Program-made: the position numbers and the translations under genes
In this document: piece by piece, positions 2,797 to 39,804 of the stretch
Position numbering within the stretch: position 1 is the stretch's first letter
Layout of the letters: each line of letters starts with the position of its first letter
Notes under the pieces: generated by a model
What the model saw: only the letters and a program-made list of their open reading frames with translations
Database searches by the model: none
Told to the model about the DNA's origin: nothing
Assembly: GCF_006345805.1 (NCBI RefSeq)
Contig: NW_021835498.1
Coordinates: forward strand, 1-39,804
Length of the DNA stretch: 39,804 nt
From: Octopus sinensis
Taxonomy: Eukaryota
Reading direction: 5' to 3'

Positions 2797-3250
2797 CATC
2801 ATCATCATCATTGTTCGACCGTGGTCGAGACAATGGAATTTACCATGCTACGCCAGACTTCACGGTCCATCATGGCATTACGGAGATCCTGTTGCTGGAT
2901 GCCTGTATCCCTGGAGATTACATCAGGGTAGGAGAGTGTGCGCCCTCTGGTATTGCGAGTAGATGGCTTCCAGAGGAGAAGAGTAGAAATTACTTCTTTT
3001 TCAGCTCTACAACAATGTCCAGCAAACTGGACTCTCCTACCTTTCACAAGAGATGACACAGGTGGTAGTTTCCCATATATTTGCATTTTGGTTGGATGGC
3101 GCTTCCACGAGAGATTTTGAGCTCTCATAAGGAGGCGAGTGTAGGTTCCATCCAACCGCCTCTCAAGCTTCTTTGATAACGTCCAGGTTTCTGAGCCATA
3201 TAGTAGAACTGGTTCGACTGTGGCTTTGAAGATTTCAAGTTTGAAGTCTC
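2797..3250 (-). mobile_element. RTE-type LINE, 3' fragment with (TGA)n tail
   Basis: ORF 2808..3359 contains VEPVLLYGSETWTL, RRVQFAGHCCR and DREVWR, typical of the RTE ORF C-terminus. Stop codon runs directly into (TGA)n. Confidence 0.88.
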
Positions 3251-3549
3251 TATACATATACACACACAAGACAAAGACATTGAAACCCTGAATATACACA
3301 GAGCGAATAGGCATATTTCCAAACATTGGAATAGGCACCAGCAGAGAGTGACAGAACATAAGAACTATCGGTGGAAAAACTTGTTCATAGGGAATTTTTA
3401 GGACATGTTACTATGTTGAATTGGAGCTGTCTTGTTTTTCGATGGAATGTGAGTGGAGATGAAATGGGCTGAATAAAGAAGGATTTCGTTTCGATATGTG
3501 TGTTTGTGTGTATGTATGTGTGTGTATGTATGCATGTGTGTGTACACGT

Positions 3550-7572: not shown

Positions 7573-8841
7573 TATGTATATATATGATTCTTATGTATGT
7601 ATGTATATATGTAGGTATGTATGTATGTATGTATGTATGTAGGTATGTACGTATGTATGGTAAAACGTGAGTGATGTAAAGTGAAGGGGAGAAAAACGTA
7701 GTAAAAATGAGAAAAGAGGGGAAGAATGATAGAGAGAGTAGAAGAAAGGAGGAGGGGAAGAGAAAGAGGTGAAGGAGTAGGAGACTGGAGGTGGGGGTAT
7801 GATGTTCATCCTCATCATGAAGATGATGATGAGGAGGAGGAGAAGAAGGAGGCGGATAGGGAGAAGGCGTAGGAAGCATCAGAAGAAAACAGAAGAAAAC
7901 AGAAGAAATTCAAAAGTTGAGAGATGTGAAGGAATATCCCACCATGTTTGATTGGCTATCAGCGTCACTACGATGCTCCGCCGTCCACCAAAAACGCCTC
8001 GGCAAATTTCTGTTATTTTCCATTAGATTTAATTTATTTATTTATCTGTTTATTTATTCATTTTGGATAAGCATTTTGTTTTGTTTTTTTAAAAAAAAAA
8101 ACGAGAAAGAAACTCCGGCTGGAAGAAGACAAACAGACAGACTCAAAGACAATGAGAAGCAAAGCATGTAGGTTGGTCGGCTGGTCGGCTGGTCGGCTGG
8201 TTGGAAGGTAGGCTGGCAGGCTGGCTGGTAGGTCGACTGGTAGTAGGAAATATATCGACGAGAACGAAGGAGAAGAATATTGAAAACCTGTGCGGTAAAT
8301 GACGTCATCAGTCAGTGCAACGACCGGCTGGTTTAACACAGATTATTAATGTATGTCAAATATATTATTGTAAACATACAACACACACGTGTGGGTGTTT
8401 CTCTGAGAGAATGGAAGACTTGTGTATTTACATATATATTTATCGAAGCAGTTGAACACTGAAGCACCTACACACACACATGCACTCACACGCACACACC
8501 GCCACCACTACCACCACCACCACAAATTTATATTATATAATATTACGATATAATATAATGATAGAATATATGTGTGTATATGTATAATATATATCATAAA
8601 TTATCTATATCATATATTACATGTATATACATATACATGTAATATATAATACACGTATATTATGCCTTATATATATATATATATATAATATATATGAAAA
8701 AAAAAAGAGTAGAGTAAAGAAATAAGGAAATAAAGTTCACAGTTCATTTTTCAAAAGGTAAGGATGTTAGTCCGAATGTCCTTTGATAAATTCCAAAGTA
8801 TATCCAAGCAGTATTATGGCAAAGTATATATATATATATAT

Positions 8842-10838
8842 TGGCCATGGGAACGCGAATGTGCCCCAACTATGCGAACCTGTTCGTGGCTATGTTGAGG
8901 CCCAAATATTCTCTAATTTCACTGGTCCCACTCCCGAACTATACGGTCATTACATTGACGACATTATCAGTGCCACCTCACTCTCCCGTGAACATCTAGA
9001 TTCCTTCCTCTCTTTCGTTCAATCCTTCCATCCTGCCCTCCACTTCACCTCCACTATCTCCTACACCTCTGTCTCCTTCCTCGACATTTCGGTCAGCAGT
9101 CATCACTCCACTCTTACCACCTCCATTCACTACAAACACACAGACTCACACTCATACCTAAACTTCTCTTCCTCCCACCCCAAACACACTAAGCTTTCCA
9201 TCCCCTATTCCCAATTCCTCCGTCTACGTAGGCTCTGTAGTGACGACCATGACTTTGAGACTCAGTCTCAACTCATGGCTTGCGACTTCATCCTACGTGG
9301 ATATCCCCTCACCACTATCCACACCGCCCTTGCCAGAGCACGTTCCGTAGACCGTGCATCTGCTCTTTCCCCCCGAACCCGCCCTGCAGTATCCCGCCTC
9401 CCTTTTCCTCCTCACTTACCACCCCACCACCTACCTCTCCAACGCACCATTCTTCGAGCTTTCCGGCATCTCCAGTCTGACTCGTCCACTTCACACCTCC
9501 TCCCTAACCGACCCCTCCTCTCTTTCAAACGAGCCCATAACCTTTTGGTCCACAGCTTCTTCCCTGACCCTACCTCCCAACCTGGCTCGTTCCCCTGCTC
9601 CCGCCCACGTTGCCGCACTTGCCCTTACCTCTCCAACACCACCATCCTCACTGGCACCCATCATTGACTCCTTCACCTGCACCTCCAGCAATATCATCTA
9701 TTGCATCTCCTGCTCTCTCTGCCATTCCCTGTACATCGGACAAACGGGACGCCGCTTGGCTGACCGGTTCGCGGAACACGTCCGAGACATCCGCCTTGCC
9801 AACGATACACCGGTCTCACGCCATTTCCGCTCTACCGGTCACTCCTTGGAACACCTGTCTGTGTTCGGATTGTCCTTGCACAGAGGCCATCCGGATTCCC
9901 GTTTGCGCCGTGAACAGGGATTAATCTTCTCTCTTCGCTCTGTCACGCCATTTGGTCTCAACTCTTTCCCCCTTTTCATCTACCCCCCCCCCGACTCCTT
10001 CTTCTCTTCAGTCCTCCATCTTTTCACCCCTACTCTCTTTCCCTCCTCTTCCCTCCTTTCCCTTCTTCCCTCTTCTTCTTTCTTCTTTCTTCTTTCTTCT
10101 CTCTCCTCCCTCTTCTTCTTTCTTCTTTCTTCTTCCCTCTTCCCCCCTCTCTTTCTCTCTGCTCCCTCACTCCCCTTCTCTTCCCCTCCTCCTCCTCCTC
10201 CTCTCCCTCTCCCCTCCTCTCCTTCTTCCCTCCCTTCTCCTCCCCTTCTCCTCCCCTTCTCCTTCTTTCCTTTCTCCTCCCCTCCTCCTCTTGTTCTCCT
10301 CTCCTTCTTTCTCCTCTCCCTCCTCCTCCTCCTCTCTCCCCCTCATCTCTCCTTCCCCCTCCTCCCCTCCTCTCTCTTCTCTCCCCCTCTCACTCTCCCC
10401 CACACCACACTACACTACACCATACGACATTACACATCACATCATACATACATACACACGTCCAAACCACCAGCCCTCTTCCACATGCACATACATAATC
10501 TCTTGTGCACACACGCACCTTCAGGTTGGAGCGAGGTCACTTGACCCTGTTATCTCCCCTACTATCCCTCTAGCGTCTAACGTCTGACCTCTAACGTTTG
10601 ACCTCCGATCTCTGACTTCTGAAATCAGAACGCCATGTTGGACCGTTAGCCCCTACACGCAATTTTTTCTCTCCTTGTTTCTCTCCTTGTTTCTTTTCTG
10701 TGTATCTTTCTGTCGAAGAGCGTAGGCTCGAAACGTAAAAGACTTGTTTTATTTCTATTCCTGAGCGCCATACTAATACGTTATTTGTTTGTACTCCACC
10801 TGCCTTCGTCTTTTGTTTATTTTCGTAAACCTTCCCGC
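8842..10838 (+). mobile_element. 5'-truncated Penelope-like element (Neptune-type): RT + GIY-YIG endonuclease, frameshifted
   Basis: AMGTRMCPNYANLF, YIDD, FLDI, HYKHTDSHSYL...IPYSQFLRLRRLCS, Cys linker PCSRPRCRTC, then NIIYCISC..C..LYIGQTGRRLADRFAEH. Pyrimidine-rich 3' UTR (10030-10400), terminal hammerhead, (TA)n on both flanks. Confidence 0.93.
10705..10742 (+). ncRNA. Minimal hammerhead variant in the PLE 3' end (core CUGUCGA, GUA site)
   Basis: tcttt-CTGTCGA-a-gagc-gtag-gctc-GAAA-c-GTA-aaaga; position matches the known pLTR location of PLE hammerheads. Confidence 0.7.
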
Positions 10839-23440: not shown

Positions 23441-24007
23441 TTAAACAAGACAAAGATTCAACTATTTCATTTGTTTTACTTCAAACACACGATTTCAGAT
23501 CAAAACAACTTCTGAGTAAATGTAAAAAGACCATGAAAAACATTAACACGCTCAAACGCTTATTTACAAGCAAGCATACAAACACAAGCATACACAGATA
23601 TATATACTCATATACATGCAGACGTGAATGTATATGCGTCTGGGCGTGTTTATATGTGTCTCTTGTACTCCGTGTAGAAGAGTGTGTAGGCCAGCCAGTG
23701 GATCCGCTCGATATTGCGGGTCCCAACATCCAGGTGATGTTGTAGCTTGGTGTTAAAATTCATGTGCAATAAATTGCTTCTACAATATATGTTATTTATA
23801 TAATTCTTAATAATATTTAGTTGTAAAAACACAGTAGGGTTTCTTTTTATATTCATCGGATGGCTTTGAGGGTCCAGCTGAATAATATAGAGATCAAAGG
23901 GTCAATAGGCACAGAAAAATTGTTGAGAAGCACGGGTTCTTCGATCTTTACATGCGTTATATAAACATCTCATTTACATATGATACGATTATTATAAATA
24001 AACTAAG

Positions 24008-30280: not shown

Positions 30281-33200
30281 GTTTCTTTATTGGCCACACA
30301 GGGCTGCACACAGATGGGACAAGTTACAAGGTAGAGCTTTTCTTTTGGGGGATGAAGAGAACAAAAAGCAAAAGAAAAAAAGGGGTGGCGTAGGTTTTCG
30401 ATCAAGAGGGATCGTAAAAGGGAAGAAAAGAACAAAAACAAAAAAAAATTGAATAAAATAAAAGGAATAAAAAGAAAGAAAAAAAAGGAAAAGGAACAAA
30501 AGGAAAGAGAAATGAAAAAAGAAGAAAAAGGGGAAAAAACAGGGGAAGAGGAAAAAAAGAACGATCAATAGGATCGTGTATCACTGTTATGATATATGGT
30601 GTAAAGGGGAAAGCAAGTAAGGTTTATCCGTGGGAAGAAAAGCCTACGAAAAAGACCACGGTAACCTTGGTCAATATTGTTATATGTTACCACATTTGTT
30701 TGCAAGTGGGTAACCTTCTGTTTTCAATTTCTGGGTTCATAGGATTATGCTCAAGGTGGCTTCGTCATTCATACGTGCCATCCTTGCTACATTCACCCAT
30801 CTTTTTTTAAAACATTCGCTAGACAAAACTTGCCTCTCTACTCTCACTTTCCTTTCAATGGTACTTGAAGAAGTTGATGAGAGATTGACCAGAGAGGAAA
30901 GTGTTTGTCTCCAATCCTTTCAGACGCGTCCACCAGATACATTCTTTCGCCATAGCCACAAGGATGATGAAAATAGCTCTTCCTTCCCGTTTGAAGGAAG
31001 GAGGCGTGACAATATTGACGATAGACTCAGCTGATAAACCGACTCGTCCCACACGTGACAGCAGTTGTTCGACATAAGCCCACAGGTCGGAAATTGTTGG
31101 ACACTGCATGAGTGCGTGCAGAACGGTTTCGTCGCTCTGACCGCATCTCGAGCAGGTCGGCCCCGTGTTTCTCGAGCCGTGTCTGTAGAGCTTATCCCGA
31201 ACGGGTAGCGCTTCTCGGTAGCACTGCCAGGCCAGGGATCTGGAAGTTGTCCATGGGCCCTGGCCCGAAAGTCGTCCTGAACAGGCGGGTCAGGTACTCC
31301 TCGTCGACGTCCAGGTTCGCCCCGAGCTCGTCGTCGTACCTCCCCTCCACTAATCCTCTATAGAATGCTTTGGTTGTGTTGAAGTCACTCAAGGTCGACC
31401 CGGGACGGCAGAGTTGCTTGAGAGCAACGCGACACTCGCGGTGCCAATCGCCCTTCCTCGGCCTCTTTTTGATCCACGACTGCAGTTCGGTCATGGAGAC
31501 GAGCTGCGGGAAAGCGTGCCTCACAAACGGCGACCACACCTGTTCACCGTCGTCTACATAGAGCCAGAGATGTCGCAGTCTCAGCGCGTGTCTGCGCATC
31601 ATCAACCACGGCATGCCCAGCCCTCCTTTTAACGGGTGTTGACAGCAAATGGATCGCCTGGCCATCGGGACGCATCCTTTCCACGAGAAGCGAAAGAGAA
31701 TGCGTTGTAGTTTGGTGATGGTAGGGTCGGGGCAAGGTTCGACGGTCAGGCGGTAGTAGATGACGGACGCCACCTCCGCCCGACCTTTTAGGGACAGTTT
31801 CCTCTCGGCCCATTGCCGGGCGAGAGTGACCACCCTACTCGTTATCTCGTTCCAGTTCTTCTCCACTTGGAGGTCCGGACCAAACCAGACCCCGAGCAAC
31901 TCAACCGGGCCGTCGGTCCAGCGTCCCACGACGGAGGCGCTGGTGGACGACATGGGCTTGCTTCTCCAGGTGCCTAGTCGCAAGTCCACTGACTTTTCCC
32001 GGTTGATTTTCGCTCCTGTCACCGCTTCGTAGTTTTTCAGTGTCTCGCCGACCTGCTCGATGTGCTCGTGGCTAGACACTATGACGGTGACGTCGTCCGC
32101 GTATGCAGACACGCTCGTCCCGCATCCCAGTTCTCGCGGGATGCCCCTCAAAGTTGCCAGCTTCCGCAATAATGGCTCGAGAGTCAATACGTATAGAAGC
32201 GACGAGAGGGGGCATCCCTGACGGACCGAACGTGCGATGTCGAAGGGTCTCAACAGATGTCCATTCACGCGAATTACCGAACGGATGCCTCTGTACAAAG
32301 CGGCTATCCAGCCGCGGAATACGGGACCGAAGCCTGCCGCTCTGAGGACCGCCTCCAAGTATCGATGGTCTACCCTATCGAAAGCTTTCGATTGATCCAA
32401 ATTGATCAGCGCCCCACCCATGCCAGGTTCGTTAACTACCCTGTCTATGATGTAGCGCATCAGGTGGAGGTTGTCATGGATGGTCCGGCACGGCACGGCG
32501 CATGTTTGCGCCTTGTCGACCAGTTTCTCGATGACAAGCGCCAACCTCTTGGCTAGCACCTTGGCCAGAATTTTCAAGTCTGCATTAAGCAGAGTGATGA
32601 GCCTAAAGTTATCTATTACATTTCCCTTGTTTAGATCTTTCTTCAGCAGTGTTACGGCTCCTCGGCTCACAAAACCAGGAATGCTCCCGTTTTGCTGCCA
32701 GTTGCAGTACACCGCCGCCAAGAGATCTCCAAACAAGTCTGGCATACAATTGGAAAGCTCGTAGGGTAGACCATCCAAACCCGGTGATTTGTCCCTCGAG
32801 CATTCTGCCATCGCCTCCTGCACTTCCGCCGCCGTGATGGCACCTTCGCAGCACCCTGCCTTTCTTGTCGAGAGTTGTGGTAGGCTATGTAGGTAGGCAC
32901 TGAAGTCCACCCTACGTTCTTGCCCTCCACTCGTCCCGAACAGTCGGGCAAAATGCTGCTGAAAGGCCTCACACATTTTACTTGGCTCGAGCAATTCGCG
33001 CCCCTATTCATCTACCAGGGACCGAATGGTGGCTTTGTTGCCCTGTTGCGCCTCTGCCACCCGGGCCTCTCTCGCGGCTCCAACACCTTCGTTCCTTAGA
33101 GCACGCATCCTAGCTCTGACAGCACATCCTTCGTGTTTGGCGTTGAAGTGTTGGTCGAGGGCCAACCTCGTCGCCAAAACGTCGGATGCGATGCCGCTTC

Positions 33201-33791: not shown

Positions 33792-34150
33792 ATACCAACT
33801 ACCGAACTAGACGGCACTGCATACTATCAAAGATACCGTCTTCTTCATCTCAGATAAGTACCCAGTATGGCAATAGGTTGAGTTTCACCAAACAATAACT
33901 ATTCAATATTCTGCCAAGGAACCTAAGAGATCTGCAAGGTGTAGATGCGGAAACGTTCAAAAAGTACCTTGACAAATTTATACCTGAAATCCCAGATGAA
34001 CCCACATCGCGACAACATACACAAGGAAGAGCAGCTTCGTCCAACTCGCTTCTGCATCAAAAACAGTACCGAAAGACCCAAAATCATGAATAGGCGGTGC
34101 TCCAGCATGGCCCCGGCCTCTGACTGAAACCAATAAAAGAATAACTGAAA
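33790..34150 (+). mobile_element. CR1/L2-group LINE 3' end with the same tail as SINE family A
   Basis: LFNILPRNLRDLQGVDAETFKKYLDKFIPEIPDEP...RAASSNSLLHQ followed by aggcggtgctccagcatggcc...tgactgaaac. Confidence 0.72.
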
Positions 34151-34189
34151 GAACACACACACACACACACACACACAGCCATGGTCACA

Positions 34190-34666
34190 GTATCTCCAGA
34201 CCCACACTCGACCACTGTCAGGAAATACTGTAAATCTGGACTCATCAGAGAATATGACAGTGTCCCAAAATGCTAAAGGCCTCTCCACAGCAACTTGTTC
34301 TGCTATGTCAGAGGTCTTGCAACGGAGATTATCCTCCACACTTTCTTTAACAAAGAGAAGGGTCCTGTCAGAGGGCCCTGGTTGATCTGGGTGAGGTGAT
34401 GTGGACTCCTTCCTCTCTTTGGTGAATTGCACAATCACTCTATTAACTGTAGAAAGCAGGATCCCAAGGTTTTCTGCGATTTTACGCTACGGCCTCTTTG
34501 AAATTCAGACAGTTCCACGGCTTTTTTTGTATGTGGCATGATTAAACAGTCACATATAGAACCTGAAACATAAAAATGTCAATTAATGAAGAATATAAAC
34601 CTTTACAAGTTAGAATAAACATAAAACAATGTTTTATGGAGTGTATATTTACTTCTGTCACGTCTG

Positions 34667-35566: not shown

Positions 35567-35580
35567 ATATATATATATAT

Positions 35581-35856
35581 ATTGTTGTATTTGGAGATGG
35601 TCATGTTCCCAGTTTAACCAATGAAAACAGACACACTATAATATATTCGGTGTTCACTTGCTTCAGCTTTATTCTATATTAATTGTATTTCGGCCAAAGT
35701 TCTTTCGTCACACTTCTGTGACCTCATCAGTGGTCCTTTGCTTTCTGCTTTCTTCTGTTCTTTTTTTTTTTTTTTTGTCTCTCCTTACCAACGATCTGCC
35801 ATTTTAACTCTGGCCGAAATACAATTAGTATAAAATAAAGCTGCAGCAAGTGAACA
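35581..35856 (-). mobile_element. (TA)n-adjacent hammerhead element with 46-bp inverted repeat (35651-35696 / 35811-35856)
   Basis: Arms reverse-complementary with 3 mismatches; canonical hammerhead core between them. Confidence 0.7.
35692..35736 (-). ncRNA. Minimal type I hammerhead ribozyme (canonical CUGAUGA core, CUU site)
   Basis: Minus strand ggacca-CTGATGA-g-gtcac-agaagt-gtgac-GAAA-gaac-TT-tggcc; stem I has one bulge. Confidence 0.72.
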
Positions 35857-36385
35857 TTTTCGCAATATTTAGCTTTTTTTTTATTTCCATAAAGGCAAGA
35901 AATCTGCTGAGGTTCACAGAGAGATATGTAAAGTTCATGGCGTTGATTGCTTTACGGAACGCACATGTCAGAAATGGCTAAAAAAAATTCTGTTCTGGAG
36001 ATTTTTCACTCAAAGATGACCATCATTCTGGTCGACTACTGAAGTTGATGATGACCGAATCAAAGCCATAATTGAATCTGATTGTCATATAACTGTGCGC
36101 GAGGTTGCAGAGAGGTTAAATGTATCATACACAACAACTGAAAATCACTTAAAGAAGTCTTAGACTCGTTAAGAAGCTCGATATTTGGGTTCCACATAAA
36201 TTGAAAGAGATTCACATGACACAACGAGTCAATGTTTGCGACATGCATCTCAAACGCAATGAAACGAATTATCACCGGTGAGGAAAAATGGATTGTCTAC
36301 AATAACATCAATCGAAAACTATCACAGTCCAAATGTAATGAACCAACACAAACTACATCGAAAGCTGAATTGCATTAAAAAAAGG
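35855..36385 (+). mobile_element. Mariner transposase relic
   Basis: FHKGKKSAEVHREICKVHG, SGDFSLKDD, TVREVAERLNVS, DIWVPHKL (WVPHEL motif), ITGEEKWIVYNN; frameshifted. Confidence 0.9.
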
Positions 36386-36594: not shown

Positions 36595-36699
36595 TATATA
36601 TATATATAATATATATAACAATTGCAGCGTGGAAGGTGTTTATAAGCCATTTAAGAAACACACAAAAGCCGTTCGATTCACTTCAACATTTAAGTTTAA

Positions 36700-36749
36700 T
36701 TTGTCAAAATATTTTCGTTGCTAAAATCCGCGACCTGTTCACTGACAAA
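36700..36749 (-). ncRNA. Hammerhead variant with G3-C8 core, left arm of palindrome
   Basis: Mirror image of 36768-36817 with one stem II mismatch. Confidence 0.6.
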
Positions 36750-36767
36750 GTCCGATGCAGCACGGAC

Positions 36768-36817
36768 TTTGTCAGTGAACAGGTCGCGGATTTTAGCGAC
36801 GAAAATATTTTGACAAA
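36768..36817 (+). ncRNA. Hammerhead variant with compensatory G3-C8 core (GUGAACA), UUU site
   Basis: tttgtca-GTGAACA-g-gtcgc-ggatttta-gcgac-GAAA-atat-TT-tgacaaa: 7-bp stem I, 5-bp stem II, palindromic stem III AATATT. Confidence 0.7.
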
Positions 36818-36974
36818 TTAAACTTAAATGTTGAAGTGAATCGAACGGCTTTTGTGTGTTTCTTAAATGGCTTATAACACCTTCCACGCTGCAATTGTTT
36901 TTCGTTTCAGCACACGATCTCAGATCAAATTACTTGCTATGCGAGTACATCTCCCTATATATATATATATAATA

Positions 36975-37489: not shown

Positions 37490-39804
37490 TGTCAGTCGCT
37501 CTAAGTGCTACTGGTAACATGTAATCCAGTACAACCTGTTGCATGGTCGGGACGTCAGCGACTAAACTGACAATCCCCCAGGTTCGCTTGGTGAGGAGGT
37601 GCTGTTGGACTCCCTGTAGGATGGAAAAATAAGACCCAACAAAGGCGGATGAACTCCTGAATAGTCAACGGCCATCCAACAAAATACCGCCTGCCCGCCC
37701 AGCCAGTGGGATGGCGTCATCTTATGGCTAAAACAGCACGAAGAACGAAAGAGAAAAGGAAAAGGGCCTCAGTACCCTGCACGTCATCGGGCCACTCCAT
37801 GACGCGGAGTGCAACTCGAGCGGCGAGAGGCTGCTAAGAATCACAGGTTCCCGAAAGCGTCATGGAACAGGACTAAACTGCCATATGTACCTACAACTGC
37901 AGGTCTATGGCGGGGTGGCAAGACTGAACCACCTAATGGAGGAAGGAAGATCAGGTGAGACGTGTTAGGGCTGTGCGAGACACGCTGGAAAGGAAGCGAG
38001 TATACGATGGCAAGATGGATGCACTGTGAGATTAGGAAGAGCAGAAGGTGCTAGATCGGTCGGAGTATCGTATTCATTTCGTAAGTAAGGAATGGGCTTC
38101 GAGGGTCGCTTCTTGCCACTTCATATCATCACGGAATGGTGTACTAAATGTGAACCTCTCAGGAAGGCCACCCTCAAGATTGTCCAGAACCTATGCTCCA
38201 CAAGTGCCAGCGACGACGACGAGGTGGAAGAATTCTATCGACAACTAGACAAAGGGCTGGCTATGAAGTCCACTTACACTGTCGTGATGGGAGACTTCAA
38301 CGCAAAGGTTGGACATGGACGACAAGGAGAGGAGTACGTCGGGAGATTTGGCATGGGAGAGAGAAAGGAGAGGAGAACGTTTGGCTACCATGGCAGAGGC
38401 GAGGCAGCTCTACATCGGAAACAGCCTATTCAGAGAGGGAGAGGAAGAGATGGACTTGGATATCGCCGAATTCTAAGCACCGAAGCGAGATCGACTACAT
38501 CCTGGTGATAAGCGACGCATATTACATGACTCTCCGTCGTGACGCATTCAACACCGGCAGTGATCATCGTCTGGTAAGGGCGAGGGTTGTCATCGACGGA
38601 AAGAGGGGAAAGATGGAGTTATATTTGGCGTCGATGGGGAAAACGTGTCCGAGTCTACAACGAGGCAAAGCTGCAGGAAGCCATCATGCAGGAAGACTGG
38701 TGCCAAGGAGACGACATGACGATGACTACAACTCACTGATAGGGAACTGAAGGAGTGTTTAAGAAGGCTAAGGGTGTATTCCCAAGAGAAAAGAAGGGAA
38801 GAATCTCGGAAGAACTACGAAGTTACTCGAGAAGAGGAAAAATATGAAGAGGACTATTGAAGATCACCTTGAATATTCCATTCTCAGCAGAGTGATTCGT
38901 CAGCAACTAAAGAAAGAGTTTGAGGCATACCGGATGGAGAAGCTCTTGAAAGCTGCAGAGGAAAAGAAGAGCCTCAAGAAATGCAAGAGGGACAAGCGCA
39001 ATATGTGCAGCTGCTCAGAGAGGCAAATTCCGGATGCACCACCGACATAGCTCTACTGTCATCACCCATACTAGTGCCGGTCGAGAGAAAGGAGTGAAGC
39101 AAGGAGATACAATCTCCCCAAAACTTTTCACTGCATGTCTCGAACAGATCATCAGAGGCATCGACTGGCAGGGTGGTATCAACATCAATGGCGAGCTCCT
39201 CACTCACCTCCGCTTCGCTGACGACATCGTACTCATCGCTGAAAACATGGATCAGCTTCAGACCATGCTGACGGAGCTCGACATCAAAAGTTCTGCAGTA
39301 GGTCTCAAGATGAACCGCATGAAAACAAAGTACATGCGGTCAGACAATGTACCAACAGGTCGAATGGTGATCGGCGGTGATTCAATAGAGAAGTGAGGAA
39401 ATATTCTACCTGGGACCGGAAGTAAATAGGTGCCGGGATATCAATTTGGAGATCTCACGGAGAGTAAGGGCCGGATGGAAGGCGTTCAATGGATAAGGGA
39501 TGTGCTCAGGGGAAGGTTGGACGACACGCGCCAACCTCATTACGGTGCAGTTCTGCCTGCAATTATATGGTAGTGAAACATGGGCTACCACAAAGAGAGA
39601 GAGCAAAGACTAGCAACGGCTCAAAGAGCCATGGAAAGGTCACTGCTTGGTATCTCGTTGAGAGAGCACATAAGTAACAAGATCATCAGAAAGAAGTCCG
39701 GCGTGAGAGATGTCATCGCAGAGTTACACGCAGCAAGTATAGATGGGCTGGACACGTCGCCCGGCTCACCGATAATCGGTGGACGCACGCAGTTGTCGAG
39801 CGTA
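37490..39804 (+). mobile_element. RTE-clade LINE (APE endonuclease + RT), frameshifted and internally deleted, runs off the window
   Basis: TYAP, VVMGDFNAKVG, WTWISPN...EIDYIL, SDHRLV; then GVKQGDTISPKLF, LRFADDIVL. The N-terminal RT domains are missing near 38990-39030. Confidence 0.92.

Follow-up and report, generated by a model that had tools for sequence, protein, structure and literature searches.

A palindrome with a G3-C8 hammerhead motif in Octopus sinensis, probably left by a two-primed insertion of a Penelope-like element

The window analysed here, a stretch of 39,804 nucleotides of Octopus sinensis DNA (contig NW_021835498.1), contains a 283-bp palindrome whose arms carry hammerhead motifs with G3-C8 in the core. 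The locus raises the question of what such a structure is and whether its hammerheads still serve as ribozymes. An earlier note had described back-to-back hammerheads in it. A reading as an RNA purpose-built to hold two ribozymes was not supported; the palindrome is better read as the insertion scar of a Penelope-like element (PLE), an origin that we regard as nearly certain.

The palindrome and its hammerhead motif

The two arms, at 36617-36754 and 36763-36899, are reverse complements that differ by one substitution (36719) and one 1-nt indel, and this alignment bears out the description of the structure (36617-36899) as a near-perfect palindrome. A one-sided extension of about 56-57 nt adjoins it, and the whole set lies in (TA)n. 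Taken together, the insertion at 36617-36955 (+ strand) corresponds to an inverted, 5'-truncated pair of pLTRs of a PLE family, here called family A, with 97.6% identity to the 5' pLTR of the full-length copy L138; a target duplication is unreadable because it would be masked by the (TA)n microsatellite. Counted from the inferred RNA start (+1), the tail-less arm (36617-36761, - strand) covers pLTR positions from about +4 to +149 and ends at putative RT start site 1, and the tailed arm (36754-36955, + strand) covers +2 to about +204 and ends at putative RT start site 2. Where the two arms join by their 5' ends (36754-36762), they overlap in a short microhomology; this inversion junction differs from copy to copy. 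The right extension is the PLE 'tail', that is, the first ORF codons: it comprises about 57 nt between both RT start sites (36898-36955, + strand) and is found in one arm only. The first 30 codons of the PLE ORF occupy 36867-36955 (+ strand) and begin at an ATG (36867) that is also the start of the ORF in L138, with two 1-nt indels in the window copy. The extension had also been reported to recur at about 23470-23510. This match is real, since its score of 39 exceeds the 30 reached at most by 100 shuffled sequences. It is small, however, with 31 of 37 bases matching, and no further pLTR aligns around it, so that 23470-23504 (+ strand) appears as an isolated, tail-like 37-nt remnant; the genome search below is much stronger evidence for a repeat family.

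C3-G8 are the consensus letters of the hammerhead 3-8 pair. They are absent from the hammerhead of the palindrome, which has G3-C8 instead and retains a Watson-Crick 3-8 pair. The right arm (36768-36817, + strand) contains a minimal type I hammerhead with G3 at 36775 and C8 at 36780, consisting of a 7-bp stem I (36768-36774/36811-36817), the core GUGAACA (36775-36781), a 5-bp stem II (36783-36787/36796-36800), GAAA (36801-36804) and then AAUAUU, with the predicted cut after U17 (36810). Core positions U4, G5, A6 and A9, G12, A13 and A14, the A15.1-U16.1 pair and H17 are all present. An extra G (36782) sits between A9 and G10.1, where an unpaired base is usual in PLE minimal hammerheads (PMC4209133). 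The left arm carries the corresponding motif (36700-36749, - strand; G3 36742, C8 36737), but its stem II is broken by the substitution at 36719, which leaves a C·A mismatch mid-stem. The back-to-back arrangement stands, but only the right-arm hammerhead is intact in the window copy.

A relaxed descriptor that accepts any Watson-Crick 3-8 pair found the right arm as its sole match in the window and had no match in 150 windows simulated with a similar composition. With Rfam, no hammerhead family reached E<=1; its matches in the window were hairpin-type microRNAs alone, below threshold. With regard to folding, stems I and II form with probabilities of 0.7-1.0 in a single arm; for stem I the value is 0.7-0.99 in the single arm and 0 in the whole palindrome, in agreement with the suggestion that a through-transcript would mask its ribozyme in a duplex. 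Dimer co-folding did not recover the helix III dimer as the lowest-energy structure. The motif in each arm is predicted to cut weakly, and solely as a dimer or with help from a protein.

The motif resembles the minimal type I hammerheads of metazoan PLEs (PMC4209133, Cervera and de la Pena 2014) in its location in the pLTR, its extra unpaired base, its G10.1-C11.1 pair and a short palindromic helix III that requires a dimer, and also in occurring mostly singly or as opposite-strand pairs, which that paper had noted. It differs from the set described there in its 7-bp stem I and in belonging to one clade of one octopus genome with three 3-8 pairs. Natural U3-A8 hammerheads are known (PMC3088659; PMC4209133), including a family in Schistosoma (PMC4209133), and engineered G3-C8 is partly active (PMC3884650). 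A natural G3-C8 pair was not found in the literature examined, which included the text and one supplement of PMC4209133; this coverage is incomplete and priority is uncertain.

Family A, its parent element and two sister families

A genome search yielded 1,779 candidates, and all 40 that were scored, the window copy among them, matched nearly the whole 338 bp at 95-100%. A genome-wide search for the swapped core gave 5,567 exact occurrences of the 20-mer containing the G3-C8 core. The palindrome might be an assembly artefact, arising from a hairpin read or a mis-join, as its near-perfect symmetry, the small contig and the two 1-nt indels of the window copy might suggest. Since dozens of loci on different chromosomes have their own flanks, target duplications and junctions, and opposite-strand joints are present in contigs of runs X1 and X15, the probability of an artefact is negligible.

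The full-length parent was sought through the tail, which gave only insertion ends among 30 loci read of 175, and was located through the ORF. Family A copies that extend further in the 5' direction gave access to inverted elements 2-5 kb long and to L138, which consists of a pLTR, an ORF from the ATG inside this pLTR (36867 in the window), a 3' UTR and a pLTR, with one frameshift. The pLTRs flank the ORF in direct orientation in L138 and inverted in L093-L107. A further copy, L139, has an open frame of 1,042 aa in which the RT motif YSRYVDD, a C-x3-C-x2-C linker and a CCHH GIY-YIG were recognised by eye. Pfam placed GIY-YIG above cut-off in one of the four frames scanned, gave no RT match and returned nothing on the full 1,042-aa frame. 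The linker, as found in P0002, fits the pattern CX2-5CxxC by which Neptune/Nematis elements are recognised (PMC8557442), and by this linker sequence the parent is an EN+ PLE of putative Neptune/Nematis type; its homologues in the RT tree carry no clade names. It shares with these elements the C-terminal GIY-YIG with CCHH and the CX2-5CxxC linker (Craig 2021, PMC8557442), as well as the (TA)n bias, inverted repeats and a tail that is often at one end only (PMC8557442; Schostak 2008, PMC2377424). Among named homologues, the best is a protein of Octopus vulgaris, nearly identical to family B. A derivative of family A with an internal deletion that fuses the ORF start to mid-ORF was also encountered (L130 and L132-L137, with about 15 similar loci); the two copies of it that were read, L133 and L136, have a G3·G8 core and an A at the extra position.

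Two sister families, B and C, were found by a protein search with the family A ORF start, to which they are 35-40% identical at the ORF start and 52-61% in the RT. The three families form one clade (SH-aLRT 99 in a quick tree of 49 rows, with one row for family C), and their hammerheads occupy the same place before the ATG. The 3-8 pair is G3-C8 in 5,567 of 6,114 matches of family A, C3-G8 in 95 of the first 100 of 3,492 matches of family B and U3-A8 in 90 of the first 100 of 3,336 matches of family C (hand counts for B and C), and zero C3-G8 occurred among the first 100 non-G3 matches of family A. When the 3-8 pair and stem II were compared across 15 rows, chosen for intact motifs and representing three lineages rather than 15 independent rows, 90 of 90 cells were paired (11-62% in slid controls) and three of the six pairs had changed on both sides across the families. 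Stem I covariation was judged by eye, and stem I is just 3 bp in family C. Helix III is palindromic in families A (AAUAUU) and C (AAUU), and the loop of family B is not. Because the 3-8 pair differs between the sister families and stem II covaries, the hammerhead fold is real, which supports the view of G3-C8 as a compensatory pair. The accompanying argument that the swap is hard to get by random decay applies to the lineage, but not to the window copy, which inherited its core.

The window itself contains an inverted insertion of family B (35579-35870, - strand) with a canonical C3-G8 A9 hammerhead (core 35730-35724). In family C, L258 has a U3-A8 hammerhead with a 3-bp stem I, and this family also makes short palindromes with a tailed and a tail-less arm.

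Ends and junctions of the inverted insertions

The arms of family A copies terminate at either +146 or +204. Across 165 loci (10 duplicate rows dropped; 30 picked as best matches, 30 by the tail and 15 as long pairs), 102 of 114 inverted pairs consisted of one tailed and one tail-less arm, the remainder being one tail/tail pair, one tail-less/tail-less pair and 10 pairs with a degraded end. The same rule applied to 32 of 37 pairs in the subset picked by core only, not by tail or likeness, and was also seen in the 2-5 kb copies and in families B and C, where the same two ends lie about 56 nt apart at homologous codons. Among the 58 pairs outside the best matches, the tail-less arm reached further toward the 5' end in 30 and the tailed arm in 19, with nine equal, and the tail-less arm of L094 contains an additional 2.2 kb of ORF. 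Alleles at +123 were discordant between the arms in 1 of 96 pairs, against 38 expected. In L057, L058, L177 and L368 (the last two being neighbours) the arms differ in loop II type, indicating that some insertions used two templates or underwent conversion.

The target duplications are of variable length and lie in AT-rich DNA; 55 of 88 pairs are within (TA)n, and in 33 pairs outside it the shared flank had a median of 11 nt. Junctions are either overlaps with short microhomology or contain a few added bases. A DNA transposon of the MITE type was rejected on the one-sided tail, the varying length of the duplications and the variable junction. Toward the 5' end many arms stop between +1 and +7, and 28 of the 39 arms that reach +1 have an additional G before it, where the parent has C or T. 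By analogy with L1, this G may be a copied cap.

The combination of one tailed and one tail-less arm, of either arm being the longer and of shared alleles speaks for two primings, each from its own RT start site, rather than for a designed RNA switch. In the mechanism that we propose, a capped, uncut RNA starting at pLTR +1, mostly from one locus, would serve as template, and the RT/GIY-YIG protein would nick the two strands of AT-rich DNA at positions separated by about 11 bp, a distance suggested by the observed duplications. One nick would prime at site 2 (+204, the tail end) and the other at site 1 (+146); both sites lie inside the first ORF codons, where the ends are observed and the priming is modelled on the anole element described below. 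Both cDNAs would then extend toward the RNA 5' end and stop independently, after which their 3' ends would be joined via microhomology or a few added bases, as the observed junctions suggest. From the DNA ends, dual priming of both target strands seems likely. We hold with good confidence that the palindrome represents two head-to-head, 5'-truncated pLTR copies from one two-primed insertion, each with a predicted weak G3-C8 hammerhead.

Alternatively, a single cDNA begun at the tail end might fold back and copy itself, which would fit the common alleles that the arms nearly always have and the short junction microhomologies. Fold-back predicts, however, that the tailed arm is always the longer one. 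It is contradicted by the 30 of 58 pairs and by L094, in which the tail-less arm is longer, unless two routes run side by side, and we consider it very improbable. Dual priming remains the preferred reading, and it invites comparison with the twin priming of L1 that Ostertag and Kazazian reportedly described in 2001, in which the second nick is said to prime internally and to give an inversion with a microhomology junction. The two parts of an L1 inversion reportedly do not overlap, whereas the arms of the octopus PLE, each begun at one of two fixed sites, cover a common stretch.

The closest parallel is the anole Poseidon element PAc (PMC11167929, Frangieh 2024), whose protein, modelled as a dimer, cuts and extends both strands and uses uncut RNA, with RT starting at two sites inside the ORF start that bound the tail. 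Family A likewise has two start sites bounding a tail, and AT-rich targets. It differs from PAc in the length of the tail (about 57 nt against 30-40), in its ATG, placed 92 nt downstream of the core and not within stem II, in having a Zn-finger linker, and in carrying naturally the 3-8 swap that was engineered in PAc, where the C3G/G8C double mutant partly cleaves (PMC11167929). The portions of PMC11167929 consulted do not connect the two start sites with the two arms of inverted copies. Inverted PLE copies and one-sided tails have been described before (PMC8557442; PMC2377424), and here the one-tailed/one-tail-less rule was counted and tied to two primings; our literature search found no paper linking inverted copies or one-sided tails to dual priming.

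The short palindromes might also be a mobile, non-autonomous family of MITE-like or retrozyme-like character, transcribed and recopied by the PLE protein. Short copies number thousands against tens with an ORF (1,779 versus 59 candidates), some junction types recur, and Penelope has an internal promoter (PMC2377424). A solo arm might act as a source from its own +1. Nevertheless, junctions, arm lengths and the identity of the longer arm vary between copies, and the variation of junctions and arm lengths indicates that the palindrome is rebuilt at every insertion. Moreover, a through-transcript would form a hairpin of -248 kcal/mol, and solo copies stop at the RT start site while the anole element needs ORF RNA beyond it (PMC11167929). 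Self-mobility of the palindromes is therefore improbable in our view. Under the two-primed insertion that we prefer, the solo palindrome is probably a dead by-product, and the ribozyme would be relevant, if at all, in tandem transcripts of the parent.

Like animal non-LTR retrozymes (PMC7229834; bioRxiv 10.64898/2026.07.22.740005), the palindrome is non-coding, has a type I hammerhead and comes from PLE pLTRs. Retrozymes are head-to-tail tandems (PMC7229834), however, whereas the two units of the octopus palindrome are joined head to head, so that each strand has a single sense ribozyme, and an assignment of the window pair to them was rejected, since it is not a head-to-tail tandem with a hammerhead per unit. 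Head-to-tail arrays do occur elsewhere in the genome, with eight and four family A pLTR units at L220:1789-3100 and L215:1892-2550 (G000 C30 and C12295); the units of these retrozyme-like arrays are 166-214 bp long, are separated by (TA)n spacers and each carry the G3-C8 motif. These arrays are the natural setting for cis dimers.

Activity of the hammerhead, and other features of the window

If cut RNA served as template, 5' ends would accumulate at the cut site (+59). The genome-wide estimate is 45 such ends, or 34 once those with stem I microhomology are set aside; the corresponding values at +55, +62 and +66 are 34, 18 and 27, and there is no clear excess. The estimates come from four pattern searches in which 30 loci were read of 56, 110, 32 and 35 matches, with 24, 5, 25 and 29 true ends among each 30. 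Cut RNA as template was rejected, as there is no clear +59 peak relative to the neighbouring positions, and an indirect estimate of a 5-fold excess at the cut site proved wrong when these controls were applied. At one locus (L418/L419, G000:C7:20655452-20655520) both arms begin precisely where the cut is predicted, and the junction holds two further short restarts at that base; we treat this as an anecdote.

The hammerhead may be a relic without catalytic activity, or may serve for protein binding or as a promoter; on this reading it reached G3-C8 in two steps through a tolerated G3·G8 and was kept for folding or by drift. Besides the lack of a clear excess of ends at the cut site, this possibility is favoured by G3·G8, found in several older ORF-linked elements and in about 140 genomic copies (41 of the first 100 of 342), 18 of the 19 G3·G8 copies read being of older loop types. 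In addition, position 9 is C in 81 of the first 100 of 3,492 family B matches, a change (A9C) expected to harm cutting. Damaged cores therefore did spread. The dimer helix III is all-AU and 6 bp long; moreover, insertion of the anole element in vitro was unaffected by ribozyme mutants (PMC11167929), and PLE minimal hammerheads cut weakly (PMC4209133). On the other hand, the three sister families have three Watson-Crick 3-8 pairs and compensated stem II pairs, and G3·G8 is less frequent among copies of the youngest loop type (1/19 versus 23/62) and absent from the youngest clade of 41 rows, though older copies mutate more. A single clade or rooted ancestor with G3·G8 was rejected: in a weakly resolved, unrooted tree, 14 of 109 rows, the G3·G8 rows having been fetched on purpose, were scattered over the older part and no more clustered than shuffles. 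Variability in family A was lower at structural positions than at other pLTR positions (1/42 versus 10/72), with a borderline p of 0.053.

The fold was so kept through the history of the clade, and copying needs no perfect core, as in vitro. The silent-relic reading, which can be compatible with the two-priming insertion model, is plausible but in our estimation doubtful. We lean towards expecting cleavage in some in vitro form. A bolder reading, somewhat less likely than not, is that the clade passed through three Watson-Crick 3-8 states, with G3·G8 as intermediate in older elements, that G3-C8 is active as a protein-assisted dimer, and that both target strands are primed by a PLE dimer from two fixed sites of a single RNA. 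Such priming would explain the inverted pLTRs and one-sided tails of PLEs generally.

Two further readings of the pLTR were discarded. A pLTR intron with G3 as +5 of a splice donor had its candidate acceptor inside the ORF and no such joint in the contigs of four runs, contigs being able to show presence, not absence; a match to a downstream promoter element was off register. Runs guessed to be RNA cover the pLTR and the ORF start, which carries no weight either way on expression.

The origin of the palindrome is ordinary, and the novelty is in the detail. Thousands of copies carry a minimal hammerhead whose G3-C8 pair is natural, the 3-8 pair covaries through three states within one clade, and the rule followed by inverted PLE insertions has been counted. 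PLE inverted repeats with a one-sided tail become testable, as thousands of copies obey a rule that fits the in vitro start sites, and the natural series C3-G8, U3-A8, G3-C8, G3·G8 and A9C allows the retention of PLE hammerheads for catalysis to be assayed. Families A and C contribute about 9,000 motifs to the octopus genome that are invisible to CUGANGA searches, as had been anticipated for the swapped core. Because these escape such searches and Rfam missed the window copies, animal hammerhead counts are too low.

The window holds other repeats as well. At 8771-10100 (+ strand) lies a piece of another PLE that covers the RT thumb and GIY-YIG, with a Pfam E of 0.005 that did not reach the cut-off, and 31192-33003 (- strand), 38089-39396 (+ strand) and 2808-3407 (- strand) resemble what we take to be RT fragments of non-LTR retrotransposons. 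Decayed stretches resembling Tc1/mariner transposase were recognised by eye at 36000-36380 and 33923-34486 (- strand). A further inverted repeat at 964-1408 has 148-nt arms at 95% identity, separated by 149 nt, with (TA)n at the arm ends.
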